Shown: in pieces, positions 21,857 to 48,694 of the stretch | Layout of the letters: each line of letters begins with the position of its first letter | How positions within the stretch are numbered: the stretch's first letter is position 1 | Assembly: GCA_965206595.1 (NCBI GenBank) | Contig: OZ242214.1 | Coordinates: forward strand, 2,816,001 to 2,880,000 | Direction of reading: 5' to 3' | Source of the DNA: Candidatus Latescibacterota bacterium | Lineage (GTDB): Bacteria > Latescibacterota > UBA2968 > UBA8231 | Length of the DNA stretch: 64,000 nucleotides | Notes under the pieces: model-generated | Told to the model about the DNA's origin: nothing | Seen by the model: only the letters and a program-made list of their open reading frames with translations | Databases searched by the model: none | Program-made: the position numbers and the translations under genes

Positions 21857-22810
21857 CTACTCCATCTCCAAGGAGGCTTTGATTCGCCCCCAAGAATTCG
21901 ACGAGATCGCAGAGACTTCCGGTTCGTCCAATTCGGGCAGCAGAATACCATCGAAAAAACGATCCGCTTTATAGCCCAATATAGTAAAGAAGGTATCCCA
22001 GTCTGTGTCAGAAGTGGCTTCGGGACTCCACTGCATCCAGGAATTATCAGGTGGGTCATAATCATGCACTGCAATCGTAAAGCCGACGATCTGACCGGCA
22101 GCCAGATCGCTGATCACGGCTCCCTCGACGCTATCCCACGCATCACCCTTCTGGTCGAATGGCGTAACATAAAGCTCGATCACGCTGATAAAGGGAGCTT
22201 CTCCTGCTACCCCACCACCGCCGTCCCCATAGGGAGGCAACGCTGTCCAGGCAAACGAATCGGTATAAAACCTGGTGCCAAAGTCATCCAAGTTCGGACC
22301 GTTGGTATGGGCAATGGCTGCATATCTCTGAGTTCGTCCAGAGAGATCCAGCCACTCCTCCTCTGAGCAACTAGAACAGCCAGCACTCCCACTATGATCG
22401 CCGTCGAATGCCAGCATGATGCTGTCATAGTTATACATATTATCCCGTGAGGATGTGGCCCAATCCACGTTGTAATCGTGTCCGTTCTTGTATACGTCAT
22501 CGCTGGCCACAAAAGCCACATATAACCGTGCTGGTTCGTCGTGCCAGGCCAGCCAGATGCGGAAGTCAAGGTCGGCAGGATCAGGTGCCGAACCTTCATT
22601 TTCTTCCGTGAAATCCAGCAGGGTCATGGTGGGTTCGCCGACCAACTCGTACCACTCGTCCACCGACCCGTCGTCGAGCCGGATCTCCTCGAGCATCTCG
22701 TCGCTGAGGTAGGCGATCGGGTACACACGATCACCCACATGGGCACCGAATGGCACTGTCAGCGGGAGAAGGAGGCCCAGAGCCAATAGAGAACGACCGA
22801 TAGGGACCAT
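21857..22810 (-). CDS. Secreted acidic protein (CBM9/DOMON-like, tentative) with C-terminal SWGRIK motif
   Basis: Signal peptide, HVGDRVYPI, DGSVDEW, DLDFRIWLAW, DGDHSG, PPYGDGGG, ELYVTPFD, FFDGILL, SWGRIKASL. Confidence 0.75.
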   Translation of the reverse strand: MVPIGRSLLALGLLLPLTVPFGAHVGDRVYPIAYLSDEMLEEIRLDDGSVDEWYELVGEPTMTLLDFTEENEGSAPDPADLDFRIWLAWHDEPARLYVAFVASDDVYKNGHDYNVDWATSSRDNMYNYDSIMLAFDGDHSGSAGCSSCSEEEWLDLSGRTQRYAAIAHTNGPNLDDFGTRFYTDSFAWTALPPYGDGGGGVAGEAPFISVIELYVTPFDQKGDAWDSVEGAVISDLAAGQIVGFTIAVHDYDPPDNSWMQWSPEATSDTDWDTFFTILGYKADRFFDGILLPELDEPEVSAISSNSWGRIKASLEME

Positions 22811-23012: not shown

Positions 23013-23204
23013 TTAGTGCGAGCACTTGCAATGTCCCTCATCGCAATCGTGCCATTCTGAGCTTCCGTGTCCTGCTTGGGAACACGCATAGGCGCAAGCC
23101 CCAGACGAACTGGCGGTGGTGGTGAACGAATGTGCGCTCAACATGAACGCAGTGCCAAAGGAAACCACCGCCAAAACGGTGAGAAACACTCTGAGCTGTC
23201 GCAT
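23013..23204 (-). CDS. Secreted defensin-like Cys-rich peptide (63 aa)
   Basis: AAGGAG RBS; signal peptide MRQLRVFLTVLAVVSFGTAFMLSAHS; core ACAYACSQAGHGSSEWHDCDEGHCKCSH with CxxxC...CxC. Confidence 0.72.
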   Translation of the reverse strand: MRQLRVFLTVLAVVSFGTAFMLSAHSFTTTASSSGACAYACSQAGHGSSEWHDCDEGHCKCSH

Positions 23205-23460
23205 GTCTTGCTCCTTTTTCCCCGATTTTAGTTTGCCTGAACTTGACCTGTACCGGGAAACCAAGCCATTCAGGTACGAGAGGAGAAATCAATGACATGA
23301 TCTGGATACCTCTGGGCGCCGATTTGGTTTGTCTAAGGGGCACCAAGCGCTTGCGATTTTCCAGAGAAAAGGTGATCCATACTGCCGATTGTTTGCGCCA
23401 AGTCATCCCTGCCAATCCCCAGATGCTTTCCTTGGGGGCACGGGGGCAGCAACGTCGTCC

Positions 23461-40584: not shown

Positions 40585-41478
40585 TTACTTCCGGGGGCGC
40601 TTCTTCGCCGCTTTTTTCGGCGGCTTCCAATTGGCGAGGTGGCGCTGCCAGCTCTTCTCCAGCTCCCCCCTGATCGCCTTGACGTCGCGGAAGCGGTCGC
40701 CGAACACCGACAGGTGGTAGCCGCCGGGGATCTGCTCCGGGCAGACGAACAGCTCGCGGCCCGGCGCCGCCGCCTTCAGCCACAGCGCCAGCAGCTGGTC
40801 GGCGAACTCCATGCAGTCGAGGAACTCCGGGGTCAGCTTGCCCCCCGGCCCGAGGGCGGGGATCATGGCGTGGTGCCCGTTGAAGGGGCGGAAGTGGATC
40901 TGGTTGGCGAGCTGCACCAGGTCGGGGCGCTCGATCAGGCGCTTGAAGTAGGGGGGCGACAGGTGCTTGACGACGGCCGGGTGGGAGAAATCCCACGTCA
41001 TCTTCAGCGGCCGCTTCTCCTCCTTCTCGAACCCCTCGGCCAGGGCGTAGGCCTTCTCCGGGGTCTCCGTGCAGGTGTCGCGGTGGACCTCGATCGAGAC
41101 ATCCATGTCGAGCTCGCCGGCGACCCGCATGACCTCGCGGGCGCAGGCGACCGCCTCGGCGGTCCCGGTGTCGTGGTCGAGCATCTGCACGTTGACGACG
41201 CGGGCGTTGTACTTCCCAATCCGCTTGAGCTTGCGCTCAGCCTCCTGCGGCCCGCCCATGTCGGTGGTGCAGGCGAAGACGAGGCCGGACTCGGCGACCA
41301 CCTCGGGCGGGAACATGATGACGCGCCCGAGGAAACCGTCGAAGCCGGCGTTCTTTATGCGCTTCAGCTTCTGGGGAAACGTCCACTCCACCCCCTTGGT
41401 GCCGTAGCCGAGCAGAGTGCCGACCGAGCACATGTGGCGCAGAACCGGGGGCTCGGCCTGCTGTTTCGATTTTGCCAT
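40585..41478 (-). CDS. Sugar-phosphate isomerase/epimerase-like TIM-barrel protein
   Basis: AGFDG, IEVHRD, WDFSH, HFR, PEQ metal-site pattern; start at ATG 41478 after GAAGGAG. Confidence 0.7.
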   Translation of the reverse strand: MAKSKQQAEPPVLRHMCSVGTLLGYGTKGVEWTFPQKLKRIKNAGFDGFLGRVIMFPPEVVAESGLVFACTTDMGGPQEAERKLKRIGKYNARVVNVQMLDHDTGTAEAVACAREVMRVAGELDMDVSIEVHRDTCTETPEKAYALAEGFEKEEKRPLKMTWDFSHPAVVKHLSPPYFKRLIERPDLVQLANQIHFRPFNGHHAMIPALGPGGKLTPEFLDCMEFADQLLALWLKAAAPGRELFVCPEQIPGGYHLSVFGDRFRDVKAIRGELEKSWQRHLANWKPPKKAAKKRPRK

Positions 41479-41612
41479 GAGATCTCCTTCCGTCCGTGAA
41501 GCCGCCGGCGCCGGAAGCTCAAGAAAGGCAGGCGGCCTGGATGGGTGATTGTCCGTTCCGCAGCCGCAACCAGCCGGAGCCGGGAACGGCACTCATGTCA
41601 GGGAAATCTACA

Positions 41613-41690
41613 TCAATGCCGAACGAGCTGATAATCCCGCTCGTACACGAAGTCGTCGTCGCGGTCGGGGTTGTGAAACTCCAAGCAGGT
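41613..41690 (-). repeat. Decayed copy of the 3' end of the tetraheme gene (copy 1)
   Basis: 71/78 identical to 43016-43093; reads TCLEFHNPDRDDDFVYERDYQLVRH*. Confidence 0.88.
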
Positions 41691-41701
41691 CAGTTCGAAC
41701 G

Positions 41702-41780
41702 AAAGGGAATCCCTTTGTCGAGGCTATACCACTGCAAGAGGGGGGGGGGCCTTCGGCGGGAACCAAGGTGGGGGTACAGA
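41702..41780 (-). pseudogene. TlpA paralog remnant abutting the cytochrome 3' remnant
   Basis: Allowing for indels in the homopolymer runs it reads YPTLVPAEG...LLQWYSLDKGIP, versus YPILMPAIGDSTLLGRYGVDKGIP in 45774..46301. Confidence 0.72.
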
Positions 41781-41889
41781 CGAGCCGAGGCGGAGTACCT
41801 GGTTACTTTCATTTCACCTACGGTGCCGGGGGCGTCGTCTCTCAATTACTGTTGCCTGAGAAGGTGAATACGTGATCCCTTCCTGGTAG

Positions 41890-42903
41890 TTAATATGGCC
41901 AACGATGGTAAGCCCTAAACAGATAGGAGTAAGGTCCAGCATCGATTCCGCTGCGACTTTCGGAACCGGTCAAGCTACCTATAGTCTTGAAGGCCTCAGC
42001 AACAGGAGAAGCCATAGCAGAAATGACAGCCCCAGCGAGAGATAACGCAAATGATGCTGGTCTCTTCCATGACTTTCGGGCGCACCTACGAAGGTCATTG
42101 GCAAGGTCGTTCAACTCGTTCTGCCGAATCTCGAAAGCAATCTCTCGTTCCTCTTCCTCCATTCGGGATAGTTCAAATGCGAATTTTCGAATAGACAGCA
42201 TATAGCGTTTGTGTGCTTCAAGATTCTGTTCGCGGAAATCCAGTATTTCATCAAAAGGCACCGATCCGAGATCAACAGAAACAGCATTGAGGTCAAATTC
42301 AACAACGTTTCCGGGAGAAGGTGAAGAATCAGTTTTTATGGACAATAACTCCGATAGCGACCTGACCATTTTTTCCAAGTCAGTTGCCGGGCTAAGGTTA
42401 GCGTTGATGGTGCCTCCGTAAGGTCGCAAGATTTGCGAGAGAAGGACAAGAACGAGTGATCGCACCTTTGGATGCATTGGAATAGAAACACTGTCCTCGC
42501 TATCTTTGGCCAGTCCACGCTCCTTTAATTCCTCGAAAATCATCTCGAAAAGTCTCTCATCTCCATAAGCTCCGAGGCGTGACATCGATATTTCATGAAA
42601 TGCAGTATCTTCTTTCGCGAGATCGTCCAAGACTCCAGAAACGATAATGTCCGTCAAAATACCAGCAAGGTTTTCAGTCGCGTCTTTGTCGATGGCTATC
42701 TCTGGTTCGATAATCTCCAGCAATCCCTGCTCTTTCAAGCCCACGACTACGGGAGCGTCAATTTGCTCTGGGCGATCTCTCATATAATTTGGGACAAGTA
42801 AGGCAATGCCGTCGAAAAAAAGCATGAGATTCTTGACCCAATCTCCATATCTCCACATTGGGTTTGGATAATAGAAAGCTATCTCTCTTTTTTCAGTTTC
42901 CAT
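41890..42903 (-). CDS. Low-GC hypothetical protein (DUF6236-like N-terminus, tentative)
   Basis: 337-aa ORF with RBS; AFYYPN...WVKNLMLFFDGIALLVP; VPFDEILDFRE; visibly AT-richer than its flanks. Confidence 0.65.
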   Translation of the reverse strand: METEKREIAFYYPNPMWRYGDWVKNLMLFFDGIALLVPNYMRDRPEQIDAPVVVGLKEQGLLEIIEPEIAIDKDATENLAGILTDIIVSGVLDDLAKEDTAFHEISMSRLGAYGDERLFEMIFEELKERGLAKDSEDSVSIPMHPKVRSLVLVLLSQILRPYGGTINANLSPATDLEKMVRSLSELLSIKTDSSPSPGNVVEFDLNAVSVDLGSVPFDEILDFREQNLEAHKRYMLSIRKFAFELSRMEEEEREIAFEIRQNELNDLANDLRRCARKSWKRPASFALSLAGAVISAMASPVAEAFKTIGSLTGSESRSGIDAGPYSYLFRAYHRWPY

Positions 42904-43015
42904 CGCTTTCCCTTCTCTTGATTAATTTCTGTTCCGGGATACACTATTCTGACGAAATAGTTTAGCCGGGAATTGTCTGATCCTGGTTGAAACAGCACAG
43001 GCACCCCTCGTTACC

Positions 43016-45382
43016 TCAATGGCTTACGAGCTGATAATCCCGCTCGTACACGAAGTCGTCGTCGTGATCGGGGTTGTGACACTCCAGGCAGGTTCTTTCG
43101 GACGGGAGGCGCCGGACCGTCTCGCTGGAAGGACGCTCGACGTGATTGCTTCCGGGGCCGTGACACAACTCGCACTGCACGTTCGCCAGGCTGCGGTCCG
43201 GTTCGAGAATCGAGAATCCGCTGTCGCGGTTCAGCCCGGCAACGTGGCATTTCACGCACTTGGAAAACTGGTGACGGTGCGCGTCAAGCAGGGTCGTATA
43301 AGCGCCGGCGTGCCGGGTCGTCTGCCACTGCTCCCACTGCGCCGAGTGGCAGGTACGGCACTCCTGCGTCCCCACGTACTTCCTGTCGTCGTGAATGGGA
43401 TCCCACTCGAAGAGCGGCGGGATGTTTCCTTCCAGCAGCTCCTCCTGCTCGGCCACGGACCGGTAGTAGGAATCGAGGTAGGCTTTCATGTCCGGGTCTT
43501 CGCGCATCTGGTACAACGCCAGCAGGTAGTTGCCCTCGAAGGAGGTGAAGCGGCCGGTCTCGTCTATCCCGATGTCGACGGTATGCAGGCCGTACACGTC
43601 GGCGTTCGCGTAGACGACCAGCACGTCGTTAAGAAAGCCGTACATCGATTCAGTCTGCTTCCTTGGATCTACTTGCCCGTCGGCCCCTACCATGTCGAGG
43701 GCGGGAGCGTAGTGCCCCGTAGTGATTATCAGGTCCAGGGCCGGGAACTCCTGCACCAAGTCATGGACGAGGCCGGTATTCAGCTCGCCGATGACCCCGA
43801 CAAAGTCCGCCTCCTCTCTCAATCCGGGCAGGTATGCCCGCACCGCCTTCTTTGGATCGGCGATATGGAGGTCGTGAGTGTTGTCTTCATAACGCGTGGG
43901 TTCGATGATCGCCGTCGGTTGCAGCAGCCCTATGAAACCGATCGTGTACGGCCCCGCCTCGATGGAATACGTCGGCGCCCCTACCAGGGAATCCCCGTGA
44001 TGGACATTGGCGTTTATCAACGGCACGGGACTGTTCCGGGCCTGGATCTGAAGAAACTCGCGGCCGTGGTAGGTCTCGTTTCGCGCGATGACGGAAAAGC
44101 CGTACTCCATCCGCCTCAGCGCCTCCAGGTAAGTCGCCAGTTCGCTTGCCGTCAGGTCATCCATTGCCGGCACGTCCTGTTCGTAGGGAAAGGCGTTGCC
44201 GGCATCGATGACGGCCACGCTCCCGCGCCTCTTTCTGATCTGGTCGATGAGGGTGGCGCGGCGGGTGATGCCGCCCGACATCTCGGACTTGCAGCCGCAT
44301 GCTTCGAGAAAGCTCCTCGTCTTTCCGGTCACGATCAGGGTGATCGTGTCTACCGCGGTTTTCTCGGACCGCGACCATGGCAGTTGTGGCGGTTGATCTC
44401 CGGGGGCAGGACCGTCCGAGTGCCAGAGAGGTTCGGGAGGAACTGACCCAGGGTCGGGGTTGGTGTGCTCGTACAGCGCGGACAGGAGATCGGCGCCGGC
44501 GACCGTCTCTATCGCACTCCCCAGATCGACGCCCTTCCGTTGCCGGTAGGCGAGCTCCAGAACATCCTGCAGATCCTGTTCCCCATCCGTGCTCCTGGAG
44601 ATCTGCCCGTCGAGGTAGTGGGCGAGGGCCAATCCACTGTAACGGACAAGAGACTGATCGCCCTTGCCCTGTGTATAGTAGGTCGTCGGGACAATGCCCT
44701 TGCTGAAGTGGGACAACCGGAATCGGTTGTGATTCCTGTACGCTTCATACAGGTACGGCTCCAGATCGGAAATGATCCCGTGCTCGAGCAGGCCCTGAAG
44801 GCCCAGGTACGTGCTCGCCCCTTCCACGAACCACAAATCGGATGCCTGCGACAGTTCCATGCGGTGGGGGGCGTAGCGCAGCCACCGGTAGGCGATGCGG
44901 GTGGCCACGGAAAGCCATCTCCCCGCGGTGGCCGGCTCCATTTCCATTGCCTGTCCGTGAGACGTGCCCGGCATGTGGATGTTCATGCCATCCGCGGTCT
45001 TGGGGGTCAGAATGACCGTGTACGGTTCCGGGACCGGCGCCTGCATGGTCCTCGTCATGTACTCGTAGAGGCTCCATACCTTGCTGGCCAGCTCCTCCTG
45101 CCGTGGGCTCGCCCACCCGTCGTACAGCACCACCCGCACGGGAGCCTCGCCGATGGTCATCTCACGCGCCGTCAAGGCCCCCATTGCGACCGCGCCGTTG
45201 ATCAGGTCCTCCCTGCCGGTGCCGTACAGGCGCGGCTCGTACGTGCCTGCTTCGCCTTCTACCTCGTTCCAGGTGGTCTCGACCCCCCAACCTTCCGGGG
45301 GCCGGATCGAGACGGTCACGTGCCCGAGCCACCCTTCGGGCACCAGGAACAGGTTGCGACCGGAGACGAGGTGGAAATCCAC
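43016..45382 (-). CDS. M61/gluzincin-like domain + UshA/5'-nucleotidase-like domain (CGC) + tetraheme cytochrome c; probably the 3' part of a frameshifted gene
   Basis: LWFVEGASTY; LEACGC...GGITRRAT, IDAGN, INANV; CRTCH, CVKCH, CELCHGPGS, CLECH. Confidence 0.78.
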   Translation of the reverse strand: MDFHLVSGRNLFLVPEGWLGHVTVSIRPPEGWGVETTWNEVEGEAGTYEPRLYGTGREDLINGAVAMGALTAREMTIGEAPVRVVLYDGWASPRQEELASKVWSLYEYMTRTMQAPVPEPYTVILTPKTADGMNIHMPGTSHGQAMEMEPATAGRWLSVATRIAYRWLRYAPHRMELSQASDLWFVEGASTYLGLQGLLEHGIISDLEPYLYEAYRNHNRFRLSHFSKGIVPTTYYTQGKGDQSLVRYSGLALAHYLDGQISRSTDGEQDLQDVLELAYRQRKGVDLGSAIETVAGADLLSALYEHTNPDPGSVPPEPLWHSDGPAPGDQPPQLPWSRSEKTAVDTITLIVTGKTRSFLEACGCKSEMSGGITRRATLIDQIRKRRGSVAVIDAGNAFPYEQDVPAMDDLTASELATYLEALRRMEYGFSVIARNETYHGREFLQIQARNSPVPLINANVHHGDSLVGAPTYSIEAGPYTIGFIGLLQPTAIIEPTRYEDNTHDLHIADPKKAVRAYLPGLREEADFVGVIGELNTGLVHDLVQEFPALDLIITTGHYAPALDMVGADGQVDPRKQTESMYGFLNDVLVVYANADVYGLHTVDIGIDETGRFTSFEGNYLLALYQMREDPDMKAYLDSYYRSVAEQEELLEGNIPPLFEWDPIHDDRKYVGTQECRTCHSAQWEQWQTTRHAGAYTTLLDAHRHQFSKCVKCHVAGLNRDSGFSILEPDRSLANVQCELCHGPGSNHVERPSSETVRRLPSERTCLECHNPDHDDDFVYERDYQLVSH

Positions 45383-45756
45383 CCGCTGACCATCGTGGGA
45401 TGGCGGCCGTGCCCGCCGCCGACCGGCCGCCCCGGCTGCACCTTGTACTCGACGCGCAACTCGCTGCCCGGCGCGCTCACGCGGTAGGCCGTGCCCGCGG
45501 GCGAGACCCGTTTCGCATGCGGAACAGGCCTGCCTTTGGAGTCGCTGATTTGCAGCCCGGTCAGGCCGATGAACTGCTCGGGCTCAAATGCCTGCAAGGA
45601 CAGGGATTCAGCATCGATTCCATCGATCCGCAACCCGACTGCTATCGACTCAGTATCAGCGGATTCTACCCGGACATCGTACGCGAGCCGCAGGCCCGGG
45701 TCCGAGCAAGCGGAGAAAAGCAAGGCGGCCATCGGGAAAAGGAGATGCAGTGCCAT
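45316..45756 (-). CDS. Lipoprotein N-terminal part of the cytochrome fusion (frameshift near 45380)
   Basis: Lipobox LLFSAC; M61 N-domain-like LRVEYKV; overlaps the next ORF by 67 bp, and that ORF has no export signal. Confidence 0.6.
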   Translation of the reverse strand: MALHLLFPMAALLFSACSDPGLRLAYDVRVESADTESIAVGLRIDGIDAESLSLQAFEPEQFIGLTGLQISDSKGRPVPHAKRVSPAGTAYRVSAPGSELRVEYKVQPGRPVGGGHGRHPTMVSGWISTSSPVATCSWCPKGGSGT

Positions 45757-45773
45757 GCCGGCTTTCTCCCTGC

Positions 45774-46301
45774 TTACCGGGAAGGTCCGAGAAGAGTTTC
45801 GATCACCGCGGACAGGCTGTCCGCCGCGGTCACCACGCCGCGTTGCTCCAAGTGGACTTCGCCGTTCCCGTCCACGAGAACCGACAGAGGAATCCCTTTG
45901 TCAACCCCATATCGACCTAAAAGGGTGGAGTCGCCGATGGCGGGCATCAGGATCGGGTACGGAACTCCGAGGTTCTCGATCCACAACTCCACTGCGAGAC
46001 GGGTTGACGACACCGCTATCCCCCATACCTCCAACCCCCGTTCGTGATACCGGGTGTAAAGATCGTTGAGGATCGGCTGCTCAATCCTACAGGGACCGCA
46101 CCAGGTACCCCAGAAATTGAGAAGCAAGACCTTTCCCTCATGTGCGGAAAGCATGAGGGAATCGCCGGTGATGGTGGCAAGGGTAAAGTCCGGTGCTTTA
46201 TTTGCGGCTGCGGGTGGTTCGGCACCAGGAACACGGAAATCCTGACAAGATGCGCACACGAGGATTGAGAGTACAGACCGGAAGGGGGTGAAACGAGCCA
46301 T
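45774..46301 (-). CDS. TlpA-family thiol-disulfide oxidoreductase (probable lipoprotein)
   Basis: APDFTL, LLNFWGTWCGPCRIEQP, cis-Pro GIP. Confidence 0.9.
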   Translation of the reverse strand: MARFTPFRSVLSILVCASCQDFRVPGAEPPAAANKAPDFTLATITGDSLMLSAHEGKVLLLNFWGTWCGPCRIEQPILNDLYTRYHERGLEVWGIAVSSTRLAVELWIENLGVPYPILMPAIGDSTLLGRYGVDKGIPLSVLVDGNGEVHLEQRGVVTAADSLSAVIETLLGPSR

Positions 46302-46375
46302 GTTCCATTGGCTTTCTCTTGCCACCTTAAACCTTACGGAACTGGCGAAGAAGGGGGATCAGAAAACCAGGAGGG

Positions 46376-47356
46376 TCAGTCCAGCAAAGAAGCCTTGATC
46401 AAGGCCCAGGAATCCGTTTTCACAACGGAGCCGGGATCGCCTGTAGACTCGTCTCCGATCAGGATGCCGTCCATCCATGCATCCGCATCTCCGGGCGTGT
46501 CGTTAAGGGTCAGGCCCGAATAGTCTCCCAAGATGAACAATTCCGCCGCTTCATAATCCCCGCCGCTCGTATCCTGATCATCGAAGTCCCAAACCTCCAA
46601 CTGAAACCCTATGATTTTTCCAGGAAACAGATCCGAAACCACGCTGTTTTCAGGTTCCTTGCGGATCAGCATATCGAAAGGGGTGGCGTAGAATTCAACG
46701 ACCCAGAACACCGGATTCTCCCCCGAAACCGAGCCGCCGCCGTCCCCGTACGGAGGGTAACTCCACCACGGAGAATCACCCCAAGGTTCTAGTAACGGGA
46801 GTGATACATGATTCCCGTCGGCCGGAATCGAGAAGGCGTGGTACCTTTGCGCATTCATATCAAATATCCCCGAGTCGTCGTCCAAACCCCAGATACGGTT
46901 TCTAGGGTCCCATGAAGGAGCCCCATCATGGTCTCCGTCGACTTTGAGGTACATGTGGTCCTGATGGCCACCTAGTGGCCCGCCACGGTGCTCCGAGTCA
47001 GCAGGGCCTACGAAAACATCGTCGCCGAAGATTCCGGCAACATAGAGGCGCGCCGGGTTGCGGCCCCAGCCCAGCCAGATCCTGAAATCCAGGTTCGAGG
47101 GATCGTAAGTTTTGGTGACGGACTCCGACTGAAGAGATTCGAAGAGCGTAAAATCGAGCGCCGTAAAGGACGACTCCCCAATCAATTCACCCCAGTCATC
47201 CACTACTCCATCCTTGAGGTCGATGCCCGTCTCAGCGCTGACTTCGAAAATGGGGTAGATCCTGTCGCCCTGATGTCCGTGCACCGACAAGGGATCGCCC
47301 AAAGTCAATGCCGTTACCAGAAATCCTGTACTCTCCATTAATTTCATTATTCTCAT
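46376..47356 (-). CDS. Secreted acidic HxGDRxYP/SWGRIK-family protein (paralog of 21857..22810)
   Basis: HQGDRIYPI, DGVVDDW, NLDFRIWLGW, DGDHDG, PPYGDGGG, EFYATPFD, WMDGILI, SWALIKASL. Confidence 0.78.
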   Translation of the reverse strand: MRIMKLMESTGFLVTALTLGDPLSVHGHQGDRIYPIFEVSAETGIDLKDGVVDDWGELIGESSFTALDFTLFESLQSESVTKTYDPSNLDFRIWLGWGRNPARLYVAGIFGDDVFVGPADSEHRGGPLGGHQDHMYLKVDGDHDGAPSWDPRNRIWGLDDDSGIFDMNAQRYHAFSIPADGNHVSLPLLEPWGDSPWWSYPPYGDGGGSVSGENPVFWVVEFYATPFDMLIRKEPENSVVSDLFPGKIIGFQLEVWDFDDQDTSGGDYEAAELFILGDYSGLTLNDTPGDADAWMDGILIGDESTGDPGSVVKTDSWALIKASLLD

Positions 47357-47367
47357 CTCCTGTCATA

Positions 47368-47400
47368 CAAAAAAGCAGGGGCAAAACTGCCCCTGCTTTT
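47368..47400 (-). terminator. Intrinsic terminator after the peptide gene
   Basis: Minus strand AAAAGCAGGGGCA-GTTT-TGCCCCTGCTTTTTT. Confidence 0.8.
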
Positions 47401-47468
47401 CCAAGACACCAGTCAGAGAGAGCCAGCGAGAAATCGCTATCCAACCCTGCAGATAAGCCCGCCTTTCT

Positions 47469-47756
47469 CTAACACGAGAAGGTCCTACATCTCGAGCCCT
47501 CGAAACTGCAAAAGGTGAAGGACCATATTTCCCCTACACATTTATTGCGGTAAGTACAAATCTCCCATTGGCAGTTAGAGTTTGCCACAGGGGTCTCCAG
47601 CATCGAGTCCAGAGCCGCGTACGGCCCGATGTCCGGAGTCTCCGCCTCCGTGAACGAGGTGAAGGAGAACACCCCCAAGACCGCCAAGGTGATGATGAAC
47701 GCCGCCAGCTTGAGCGGCAGGATGAGCCGCGGCAACGGCAAGATGAAATCTTTCAT
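47469..47756 (-). CDS. Secreted Cys-rich peptide precursor (95 aa, six-Cys core)
   Basis: Hydrophobic signal, acidic pro-region, core CQWEICTYRNKCVGEIWSFTFCSFEGSRCRTFSC ending in Cys. Confidence 0.75.
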   Translation of the reverse strand: MKDFILPLPRLILPLKLAAFIITLAVLGVFSFTSFTEAETPDIGPYAALDSMLETPVANSNCQWEICTYRNKCVGEIWSFTFCSFEGSRCRTFSC

Positions 47757-47881
47757 GATCTTCCTGCTTTCTCCAAAACTGAGATGGGGTTGCAAGTCTA
47801 TCTACTACTCGATTCAGTGCGCACGGGACAGAAACGAGCGCGTCGCCGTTACCATCTCCTTTCTCCTGCCCAAGTCGGTCA

Positions 47882-47923
47882 TCAATGTCGCACATTCTGA
47901 TAATCCCGCTGGTTCATGAAGTC
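47882..47923 (-). repeat. Third, more diverged copy of the cytochrome gene 3' end
   Basis: 34/42 identical to 41613-41654; reads DFMNQRDYQNVRH* versus DFVYERDYQLVSH*. Confidence 0.7.
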
Positions 47924-48214
47924 CAGTTTCCGGGGGGCCGGATCGCCGCAAGTACTGCTTCCTTCGACTCCCCCGCGACCCTGTCTCATTGTCAGGAGTA
48001 AGAAAAAAAAAGCAGTGAGTCAAGAGGTTTTTGCGAGCCGACCCACGCTCCCCATCAAAACAGGATGCCGAGCCTCGATTTTTTTTAGAGCCCCCGCCAT
48101 TGGAGGTCGATCAGCCGCTTCAGGAGCTAGGCATCGCCGCCTTGACTTGCGGATTTCGAGACTCGTAACTTACCGTAAAATCAGGTTCTTAGAGAAAAAT
48201 CCAGGGAGTGGAAA

Positions 48215-48694
48215 ATGGGACGGACGGCCAGTCTTCTGGCGGTGATGATGACGGTGTGGCTGCTGTGGTCGGGACAGTACACCTGGCTGATAGTGGGCTT
48301 CGGACTGCTCTCCTGCCTGCTGGTCGCCATTATCGCCCGCCGCATGCGCATCCTCGATTTCGAAGGCCACCCCGTTCACCTCGCGCGGCGGCTGCCGGCC
48401 TACTGTCTCTGGCTGCTCTGGGCGATCGTCCGCTCCAACCTCGACGTCGCCCGGCGCATCCTCCATCCGCGGTTGCCGGTCAGTCCCCGGATCATCCGGG
48501 TCAAGGCGAGCCAGCGCACCGATCTCGGCAAGGTCGTCTTCGCCAACTCCATCACCCTGACGCCGGGAACCCTGGCGCTCGAGGTCGAAGGGGACGAGAT
48601 CGAGGTGCACGCCCTGACCCGGGAGAGCGCCGCGGACCTCGAGTCCGGGGAAATGGACCGGCGCGTGACCTGGGTCGAGGGGGAGGAATCCTGA
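48215..48694 (+). CDS. mnhE: Na+/H+ antiporter subunit E
   Basis: IVRSNLDVA, FANSITLTPGT, VHAL. Confidence 0.92.
   Translation: MGRTASLLAVMMTVWLLWSGQYTWLIVGFGLLSCLLVAIIARRMRILDFEGHPVHLARRLPAYCLWLLWAIVRSNLDVARRILHPRLPVSPRIIRVKASQRTDLGKVVFANSITLTPGTLALEVEGDEIEVHALTRESAADLESGEMDRRVTWVEGEES

Follow-up and report, generated by a model that had tools for sequence, protein, structure and literature searches.

What would place a gene for a small, secreted, cysteine-rich peptide beside a gene for a tetraheme lipoprotein? The question is raised by a cluster on the minus strand of a 64,000-nt stretch of a Candidatus Latescibacterota bacterium (assembly GCA_965206595.1, contig OZ242214.1, positions 2,816,001 to 2,880,000), referred to here as the window. 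Its source genome, G000, is a 7.05-Mb single contig with a completeness of 92.9%. Five open reading frames (ORFs) are listed on the minus strand between 43016 and 47795. A preliminary description had read them as four genes, for a six-Cys peptide precursor, an acidic protein, a TlpA-type protein and a lipoprotein that fuses a pseudo-peptidase with a CGC motif and a tetraheme domain, and had placed a strong hairpin behind the peptide gene. A re-check of ORFs, motifs and folds located all four genes, the hairpin and the motifs at the positions it gave. Pfam and NCBIfam name only a redoxin, a c554-type heme domain, an M61 N-domain and a UshA-like (seleno)protein in the cluster, and an Rfam scan of 41000-48400 returned nothing at gathering scores. 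Sequence comparison points, with slightly better than even confidence, to a two-part system in which a heme-coupled thiol oxidase lipoprotein is dedicated to the folding of secreted six-Cys peptides.

The peptide gene (47469-47756, minus strand, ATG start, with a further TTG upstream at 47795) encodes a pre-pro-peptide of 95 amino acids that was assigned by ORF, profile and family alignment to what we call family B. A basic and hydrophobic, signal-like N-terminus is followed by an acidic stretch, the pro-region motif GPYAAL (47610-47627), an AxA-like junction (ANS) and the core (47472-47573), and Cys residues 62, 67, 73, 83, 90 and 95 are spaced C-x4-C-x5-C-x9-C-x6-C-x4-C. Export signals were judged by eye, as a basic n-region followed by a hydrophobic stretch of 15-20 residues. 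The ORF has no Pfam or NCBIfam match. A family-B profile searched against 1.84 billion proteins found 32 clusters, every one 69-118 amino acids long. Exactly six Cys follow the motif, at similar spacing, in 27 of the 32, while two clusters have seven, one has five and two have three; the last two are the counterpart of the truncated peptide of an in-genome paralog, described below, and a 69-amino-acid fragment. Across the 33 rows of the family alignment, the Tyr and three Cys are invariant, further Cys are present in at least 90% of rows, and the cores are hypervariable around the fixed Cys positions. A conserved leader with a variable core, resembling precursors of ribosomally synthesized and post-translationally modified peptides (RiPPs), is seen in this alignment and in that of a second family, D, introduced below. 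Contigs from runs of three studies carry the ORF with an identical sequence, and comparable small Cys-rich ORFs occur in 10 of 4000 random windows of G000. The peptide postulated in the preliminary description is thus a real member of a conserved family. A 220-nt contig covers 47648-47867, which is the 5' end of the peptide gene and the sequence upstream of it, and nothing else of the 2.8-kb stretch compared; the 'RNA' label of its run is only a guess, and transcription is not shown by it.

A terminator-like hairpin (47371-47400, minus strand) separates the peptide gene from the gene for the acidic protein. Its stem of 13-16 bp is followed by a T run, and its folding energy of -25.8 kcal/mol (z -5.3) was equalled in 0 of 200 shuffles. 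A consensus terminator scan did not list it, because the T run pairs with the 5' A run and only TT is left after the stem. Hairpins at least as strong as -24 kcal/mol recur behind family-B genes (4 of 10) and behind genes of another peptide family, A (7 of 15); the genome control has a mean of -16.5 (sd 5.0). Such a recurrent hairpin after the peptide gene fits a putatively high expression of precursor relative to enzyme. A sigma-54 promoter before the window peptide was also considered; the best site matches only 6 of 11 positions, and no claim is made for it.

The lipoprotein, called the enzyme here, is encoded in two pieces in the window. The N-terminal fragment (45316-45756, minus strand), recognized as an ORF and by comparison with the paralog, contains the lipobox LFSAC (Cys codon 45706-45708) and the start of an M61-like N-domain. 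The remainder (43016-45382, minus strand), delimited by Pfam, NCBIfam, Foldseek and motifs, contains the rest of the M61/M1 fold, a UshA-like domain with CGC and a c554-type tetraheme domain. The split is a 10-nt deletion between 45381 and 45380 relative to both the in-genome paralog and the same-genus ortholog. A contig from run X1 spans 45245-45410 without difference or gap, and X1 may be the window's own source sample.

The first 470 residues were modeled with a predicted local distance difference test score (pLDDT) of 83 as an M61/M1 aminopeptidase fold. Foldseek matched the model to 4fgm (E 6.9e-22), 7xyo (E 1.3e-19) and 8j9c (E 8.3e-18), with template modeling (TM) scores on the query of 0.55-0.67, and PF17899 (M61_N) scored 24.6 bits on the intact paralog (cutoff 23). 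The fold is thus the one of M61 glycyl aminopeptidases, with the differences that the enzyme domain has no zinc site and is fused to redox domains. HExxH is the zinc-binding motif of active M61 metallopeptidases; a motif search found it in none of the six Latescibacterota enzymes and none of the soil relatives described below, and the N-domain is therefore a pseudo-peptidase. GNH[DE], the metal-binding and catalytic motif of calcineurin-type phosphoesterases such as UshA, is likewise absent from the UshA-like domain of all six Latescibacterota enzymes, and DAGN[AF]F takes its place in four of them.

All six share LE[AH]CGCK (LEACGCK in the window, with CGC at 44291-44299), which, near the start of the UshA-like domain, agrees with the Cys-x-Sec/Cys redox motif of NF041198, the model for a COG0737 UshA-like selenoprotein. 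Four CxxCH motifs (in the window at 43346-43360, 43244-43258, 43160-43174 and 43076-43090) are present in all but the paralog, whose fourth has been frameshifted off. PF13435 scored 59 bits on the window enzyme (cutoff 20.8, E 9e-16), identifying a c554-type tetraheme domain. NF041198 itself matched at E 1.6e-52 to 1.5e-75, with 178.8 bits for the G000 paralog, 215.8 for the ortholog in G002, 182.8 for a soil relative and 254.8 for a sister subfamily. The enzyme shares with that family a UshA-like domain with Cys-Gly-Cys/Sec followed by a c554-type tetraheme domain, and differs from it in the additional 470-residue M61-like N-domain, the lipobox, the use of Cys rather than Sec, and scores below the cutoff. 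In the available portions of PMC2398784 and PMC13188914 the UshA-like (seleno)protein family is listed with its CxU motif and without a function.

A profile built from four full-length enzymes was searched in 168 Latescibacterota genomes. Full-length enzymes were found in six of them, at seven loci (two in G000 and one each in G002, G004, G035, G108 and G090), and a homologous peptide gene lies beside the enzyme at all seven. Family-B peptides occur in seven of the 168 genomes, namely the six with an enzyme and G001, and the other 161 have neither gene; this co-occurrence count is partly circular, as the family-B profile was built from the enzyme loci themselves. In G004, G035, G108 and G090, the enzyme stop codon is followed, at a distance of 50-146 nt, by the start of a small ORF that encodes a signal-like N-terminus, the motif (G/S)(P/A/T)Y(A/S/G)x(L/F), an AxA-like junction and four to seven Cys, aligning with the window peptide. 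The peptide gene is upstream of the enzyme in the window's genus, where the order in G002 is peptide, three acidic genes, TlpA and enzyme. The upstream position given in the preliminary description did not hold more widely, since in most loci the peptide gene is downstream.

Upstream of the window peptide gene itself lies a fossil of the enzyme 3' end (47880-47923, minus strand), identified as a direct-repeat family (D2) and by local alignment. It reads DFMNQRDYQNVRH followed by a stop, and the live enzyme gene ends DFVYERDYQLVSH followed by a stop. The fossil precedes the peptide start by about 125-140 nt in the window and by 117-140 nt across the two G000 copies. Local alignment scores were 39 in the window (maximum of 27 in 200 shuffles) and 46 in the paralog (maximum of 29). 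Because a fossil enzyme 3' end precedes the peptide in both copies, the enzyme-then-peptide order is ancestral in G000 too. These fossil ends and the search that gave the 32 protein clusters are evidence independent of the construction of the family-B profile.

A second, independent clade was found in soil metagenomes. A scan with the enzyme N-domain gave 11 loci, 10 of them distinct, that encode proteins of 23-30% identity and the same architecture. MLEVCGC[KV] is present in five of the 10 and LEHCGCK in one, and the four complete ORFs have four CxxCH each. No family-B peptide was found in the soil enzyme loci. Directly upstream of the enzyme, eight of the nine distinct loci with upstream sequence have one to five tandem precursors of family D (E 1e-9 to 1e-46), and four of these eight (L149, L150, L151 and L156) lay outside the construction of the family-D profile. 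At the ninth, L148, the match is weak (E 0.005) and falls on an eight-Cys ORF resembling one in L151. In a family-D precursor, which is about 80 amino acids long, a signal is followed by the conserved pro-region LGSLQQAI..VVDLTA and by a C-terminal core whose Cys are spaced C-x3-C-x5-C-x5-C-x2-C-x-C, or by a variant of this core with four Cys. No homology between families B and D was detected (hhalign probability 0.7%). The soil loci are neighbored by HAD hydrolase, methyltransferase and permease genes, and the Latescibacterota loci by genes for an NHL propeller, TPR/GWxTD proteins or large barrels; as these other neighbors differ between the clades, the conserved unit is the precursor or precursors plus the enzyme. 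The association of peptide and pseudo-peptidase/CGC/tetraheme protein proposed from the window alone is therefore upheld, with 7/7 Latescibacterota loci and, through a second peptide family, eight clear cases and one weak case among nine soil loci.

Related proteins that do not accompany peptides give an indication of the chemistry. A sister subfamily (L157 5097-8075, minus strand, and L158-L162) has 960-1004 amino acids, with the UshA-like LEVCGC domain and four CxxCH placed N-terminally and, in all six proteins examined, one further CxxC in the C-terminal part. In the two of these proteins that were compared with Pfam, the heme domain is followed by DSBA-like and thioredoxin-like domains, PF01323 scoring 29 bits in one (above cutoff) and 21.9 bits in the other (below), and a PDB sequence search with the C-terminal half gave only a weak match to 1a8l (E 0.065). 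No family A, B or D peptide lies within about 6 kb beside any of the six (15-kb loci), and small ORFs near sister genes in short loci were rejected as Arg-rich shadow ORFs that lack a conserved framework. The sister proteins thus have DsbA-like domains and no peptides, so that peptides accompany the M61-like domain, and disulfide-exchange domains accompany the CGC/heme module. A thiol-redox role of this module, as suggested in the preliminary description, is backed by the DsbA-like fusion and by the CxU motif listed for the selenoprotein relatives in the portions of the two papers cited above. In G000, at its completeness of 92.9%, there is no match to DsbB (PF02600) or VKOR (PF07884), and one DSBA match is present (C1:389087-389584). 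Matches to the sister UshA-like/heme part were found in 12 of 12 searched genomes of genus g19. The sister proteins are candidate DsbB substitutes.

In the two-part system that we favor, the pre-pro-peptide would be exported via Sec, with its signal-like N-terminus, short pro-region, AxA-like junction and hypervariable six-Cys core. In the periplasmic lipoprotein, the dead M61-type aminopeptidase domain would hold the pro-region, and the CGC disulfide in the dead UshA-type fold would oxidize pairs of core thiols, turning six thiols into three disulfides. The tetraheme domain would re-oxidize the CGC, so that electrons would leave the peptide via CGC and reach an acceptor through the hemes. The TlpA-like redoxin would be an optional helper that corrects disulfides or keeps the CxxCH sites of the enzyme reduced for heme attachment. 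CxC motifs are reportedly PDI mimics, as Woycechowsky and Raines are said to have described in 2003. From the gene linkage, motifs, domain fusions and predicted folds that were observed, we infer binding, chemistry, the direction of electron flow and a role for the mature peptide. A complex prediction with residues 18-914 of the G002 enzyme and residues 36-96 of its peptide gave three disagreeing runs (0.55, 0.02 and 0.02), which argue neither for nor against binding.

The TlpA/ResA-like thioredoxin-fold protein is encoded at 45774-46325 (minus strand, with an alternative ATG at 46301) and has its WCGPC at 46089-46103. Redoxin and AhpC-TSA domains (PF00578 E 1e-18, PF08534 E 8e-18) and WCxPC are common to it and to TlpA, ResA and CcmG, and it falls below every equivalog cutoff (ResA NF002854, 102.7 vs 170; DsbE, 59.5 vs 123; TlpA, 57 vs 230). 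It had been put forward as a core component of the cluster, which its distribution contradicts. A TlpA-like gene is present at five of the seven Latescibacterota enzyme loci, and the only thioredoxin-like gene among nine soil loci is in L148, where a thioredoxin-TPR protein is encoded two genes downstream. TlpA is accessory. Its paralogous copy in G000 (L013 7382-7939) has WCEPC instead of WCGPC.

The acidic protein (46376-47356, minus strand, 326 amino acids) contains 57 Asp and Glu residues vs 18 Lys and Arg, no Cys, and HQGDRIYP after a hydrophobic N-terminus. It has no Pfam family at E values up to 5 and no NCBIfam match, and it is unnamed in the sources searched. Its structure model (pLDDT 79, predicted TM score (pTM) 0.80) is that of a secreted protein with a CBM9/DOMON-like beta-sandwich. 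Foldseek matched it to the CBM9 modules 7nwn (E 5e-9, TM 0.66 on target) and 1i82 (E 3e-8), and more weakly to DOMON-like heme subunits (7b04_C and 2ivf_C; fold matches overall to E 7e-3). A PDB sequence search with the acidic-family profile gave 0 matches, and CBM9 membership was thus not found at the sequence level. Unlike CBM9, the protein has no Pfam CBM9 match, stands alone as a secreted protein, and has the motifs (H/Q)xGDRxYP and SWGRIKA. The former is N-terminal, where the predicted mature N-terminus is usually His and sometimes Gln (alignment A2), and the latter is near a C-terminus with invariant W..IK. Two further ideas were dropped: a histidine brace, as the residue after the predicted cleavage site is Gln in several members, and a relationship to the NHL lipoprotein of other loci (hhalign probability 0.2%).

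Members of the acidic family are encoded at no fewer than 54 places in each of three genomes of the window's genus. Among 24 further genomes of the taxonomic family, 21 contain it, and none of 16 genomes that represent other families of the class does. A tblastn search of G000 gave 92 segments at 81 loci, 66 of which span more than 200 residues, and tandem arrays reach seven genes (for example G000:C1:6974857-6983745). The closest same-genus relative of the window protein (70% identity) is alone, with no peptide, TlpA or enzyme nearby, and the acidic protein is absent from enzyme loci outside the window's genus. The preliminary description took the acidic HxGDRxYP protein for a dedicated partner of the peptide; its CBM9-like fold, its roughly 81 loci in G000 and its absence from enzyme loci of other genera speak against this. 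The acidic proteins form a family of their own that has expanded massively; its members are often paired with Cys-rich peptides, and only in this genus does it belong to the cluster.

The pairing of acidic proteins with Cys-rich peptides was scored by same-strand small ORFs with a hydrophobic N-terminus and at least four Cys in the last 45 residues. Such an ORF lies within 900 nt upstream at 11 of the 81 acidic loci (random windows, 10/4000), and most of the 11 are family A, with the pattern CAYxCSxxGH...CxC. A family-A profile made from seven ORFs found 16 in G000, and a CBM9-like gene lies 133-1546 nt downstream on the same strand in 16/16. Other genomes have an upstream Cys-rich ORF at 6 of 65 acidic loci vs 0 of 65 on the opposite strand. 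A strong -24/-12 sigma-54-type site, GGCACGCCnnTTGCA, is present just upstream of five family-A genes. The window holds a second pair of this kind, a family-A precursor (…ACAYACSQAGHG…CKCSH; 23013-23264, minus strand) 268 nt upstream of an acidic-family gene (21869-22744, minus strand). The upstream Cys-rich ORFs of other genomes include a third family, C (ILPVAWVGAVMMAAAVVL…YCW…RCRC, with 8-9 Cys), whose precursor genes immediately precede CBM9-like genes in other Latescibacterota genera (L077 3332-3649, L086 3604-3909, L092 3611-3910 and L110 3569-3895).

Other genes also neighbor family-B peptides and the enzyme. In G004, family-B genes are followed by SlpA_C-like barrel proteins of about 1000 amino acids, twice (L047 10964-14041 and 15016-17982), and in G035 (twice) and G090 by TPR and GWxTD proteins (L048 1700-4120 and 11608-14115; L134 11739-14363). 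The gene immediately before the enzyme in G108 and G090 encodes an NHL-repeat beta-propeller lipoprotein (L133 7304-8299; L134 7096-8244), and in G108 a TlpA-like redoxin precedes this lipoprotein.

The whole cluster is present twice in G000, the second copy 0.6 Mb away. Amino acid identity between the copies is 94% for the C-terminal part of the enzyme, 90% for TlpA, 84% for the N-terminal part of the enzyme, about 80% for the peptide leader and 74-76% for the acidic protein. The paralog peptide gene lacks about 100 nt coding for the core from the second Cys onward. The last CxxCH of the paralog enzyme is out of frame through one extra A in a run of seven, which could be an assembly error. 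The window copy keeps the peptide and has a frameshifted enzyme, and the second copy keeps the enzyme and has lost the peptide core. Adjacent to the window copy, in a region comprising 41609-41745 and 41890-42903, a low-GC gene (44-47% vs about 65% around it, with a weak DUF6236 match) is placed between the enzyme 3' end and a 98-nt copy of that end (86% identity), which a 40-nt TlpA-like fragment adjoins. The arrangement resembles either what is left of a further TlpA-enzyme unit or an insertion accompanied by a long duplication.

Other explanations of the cluster share part of this evidence. If the peptide ORF were a chance ORF in GC-rich DNA, its small size and the lack of a Pfam or NCBIfam match would be expected, but homologs in 32 clusters with conserved Cys columns at 69-118 amino acids, and the rarity of such ORFs in random windows (10/4000), already refute this at the level of sequence and leave it a negligible probability. 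The genes might also be independent modules side by side, the peptide belonging with the CBM9-like protein, TlpA serving heme attachment, and nothing connecting peptide and cytochrome. All 16 family-A genes in G000 are upstream of a CBM9-like gene, a same-genus ortholog of the window acidic protein stands alone, and the hairpin parts the peptide from the other genes, as this would predict. However, peptide and enzyme are adjacent without a CBM9-like gene in four other genomes and in the soil clade, they co-occur across the 168 genomes, and a fossil enzyme 3' end is upstream of the peptide; with respect to the peptide-enzyme link, independence is already largely refuted, and we consider it improbable. 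No more probable is that the small Cys-rich proteins, rather than being products, work together with the lipoprotein as its subunits or as partners that bind metal or take part in redox reactions; they might, for example, carry metal in the periplasm for a metal reductase. Their cores are Cys-rich, family-A relatives have a conserved His, and the enzyme has four hemes, yet there are one to five diverged tandem copies per soil locus with hypervariable cores and even Cys numbers, a pattern typical of diversified secreted peptides and not of a stoichiometric subunit.

A linked peptide and enzyme might also undergo another chemistry, such as thioether formation or another cross-link, persulfide formation, or a reductase or isomerase activity serving to activate, recycle or inactivate the peptide, and the linkage evidence is the same as for oxidative folding. 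A TlpA-type protein is adjacent at five of seven Latescibacterota loci, and TlpA-type proteins are usually reductants. The UshA-like family, in what is available of the papers cited above, is listed only as a selenoprotein with CxU, with no function given. Strict six-Cys or four-Cys parity, however, suits paired disulfides. The module is moreover fused in the sister subfamily to domains like DsbA, which is an oxidant, and we hold a different chemistry to be unlikely, if less so than the alternatives above. Several points nevertheless weigh against a dedicated heme-coupled thiol oxidase. Disulfide formation is suggested by Cys parity, the CxC/CxU motif and domain fusions, and a protease for cleavage of the pro-region is unaccounted for in a two-part system. 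Genomes within one genus are not independent, and the Latescibacterota cases amount to about four lineages. G001 has a family-B peptide and no enzyme match in its genome, and in G000 a third family-B copy lies inside an acidic-protein array with no nearby enzyme. No enzyme tested reached the NF041198 equivalog cutoff of 275 bits (178.8-254.8), and a TlpA gene beside a multiheme gene would also be expected from ordinary cytochrome c maturation. Finally, with the window enzyme frameshifted and the paralog peptide without its core, the system may be decaying in this organism.

Parts of the proposed system are familiar from other bacteria. Its job would be like that of DsbA-DsbB or VKOR, in that electrons would be passed from periplasmic thiols to an electron-transport cofactor; unlike DsbB and VKOR, the enzyme is non-homologous, would use c-type heme rather than quinone, is a predicted soluble lipoprotein, and is apparently substrate-specific through a peptide-binding domain. 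Some bacteriocin operons contain their own thiol-disulfide oxidoreductases, as with sublancin, where sunA is accompanied by bdbA and bdbB. There too a precursor gene is beside dedicated disulfide-forming proteins, but the enzyme type here is different, the pre-pro-peptides are of the Sec type rather than having double-glycine leaders, and there is no conserved transporter gene. Precursors of the heat-stable enterotoxin type are Sec-exported, and their six-Cys core is oxidized in the periplasm by the general DsbA, with no dedicated enzyme gene adjacent. The family-B precursor shares their layout of signal peptide, pro-region and short C-terminal six-Cys core, a likeness of architecture only that implies no activity, and differs in the dedicated candidate enzyme encoded beside it. 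A literature search, the coverage of which left out most subscription journals, found no published description of the peptide-enzyme association.

Rule-based peptide miners would not flag these peptides, because no known RiPP enzyme is present. More tentatively, and with a little under an even chance in our estimate, the enzyme could be the founding member of a class of peptide maturases, a heme-coupled CxC thiol oxidase that works without DsbB or VKOR and is aimed by a dead aminopeptidase domain, with families B and D as new peptide classes and the sister DsbA fusions as a general DsbB substitute. If a heme-coupled maturase is indeed at work, a system as small as one enzyme and one 60-residue substrate would make ribosomal peptides that are secreted and rich in disulfides, with families B and D as two new classes of them. 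It would then represent a third bacterial route to periplasmic disulfides besides DsbB and VKOR, via c-type hemes, and the UshA-like CxU/CGC selenoprotein family would gain a function. For uncultured Latescibacterota and soil bacteria, the system would also define families of small secreted peptides that are new, rich in disulfides and made from diversified precursors in tandem.

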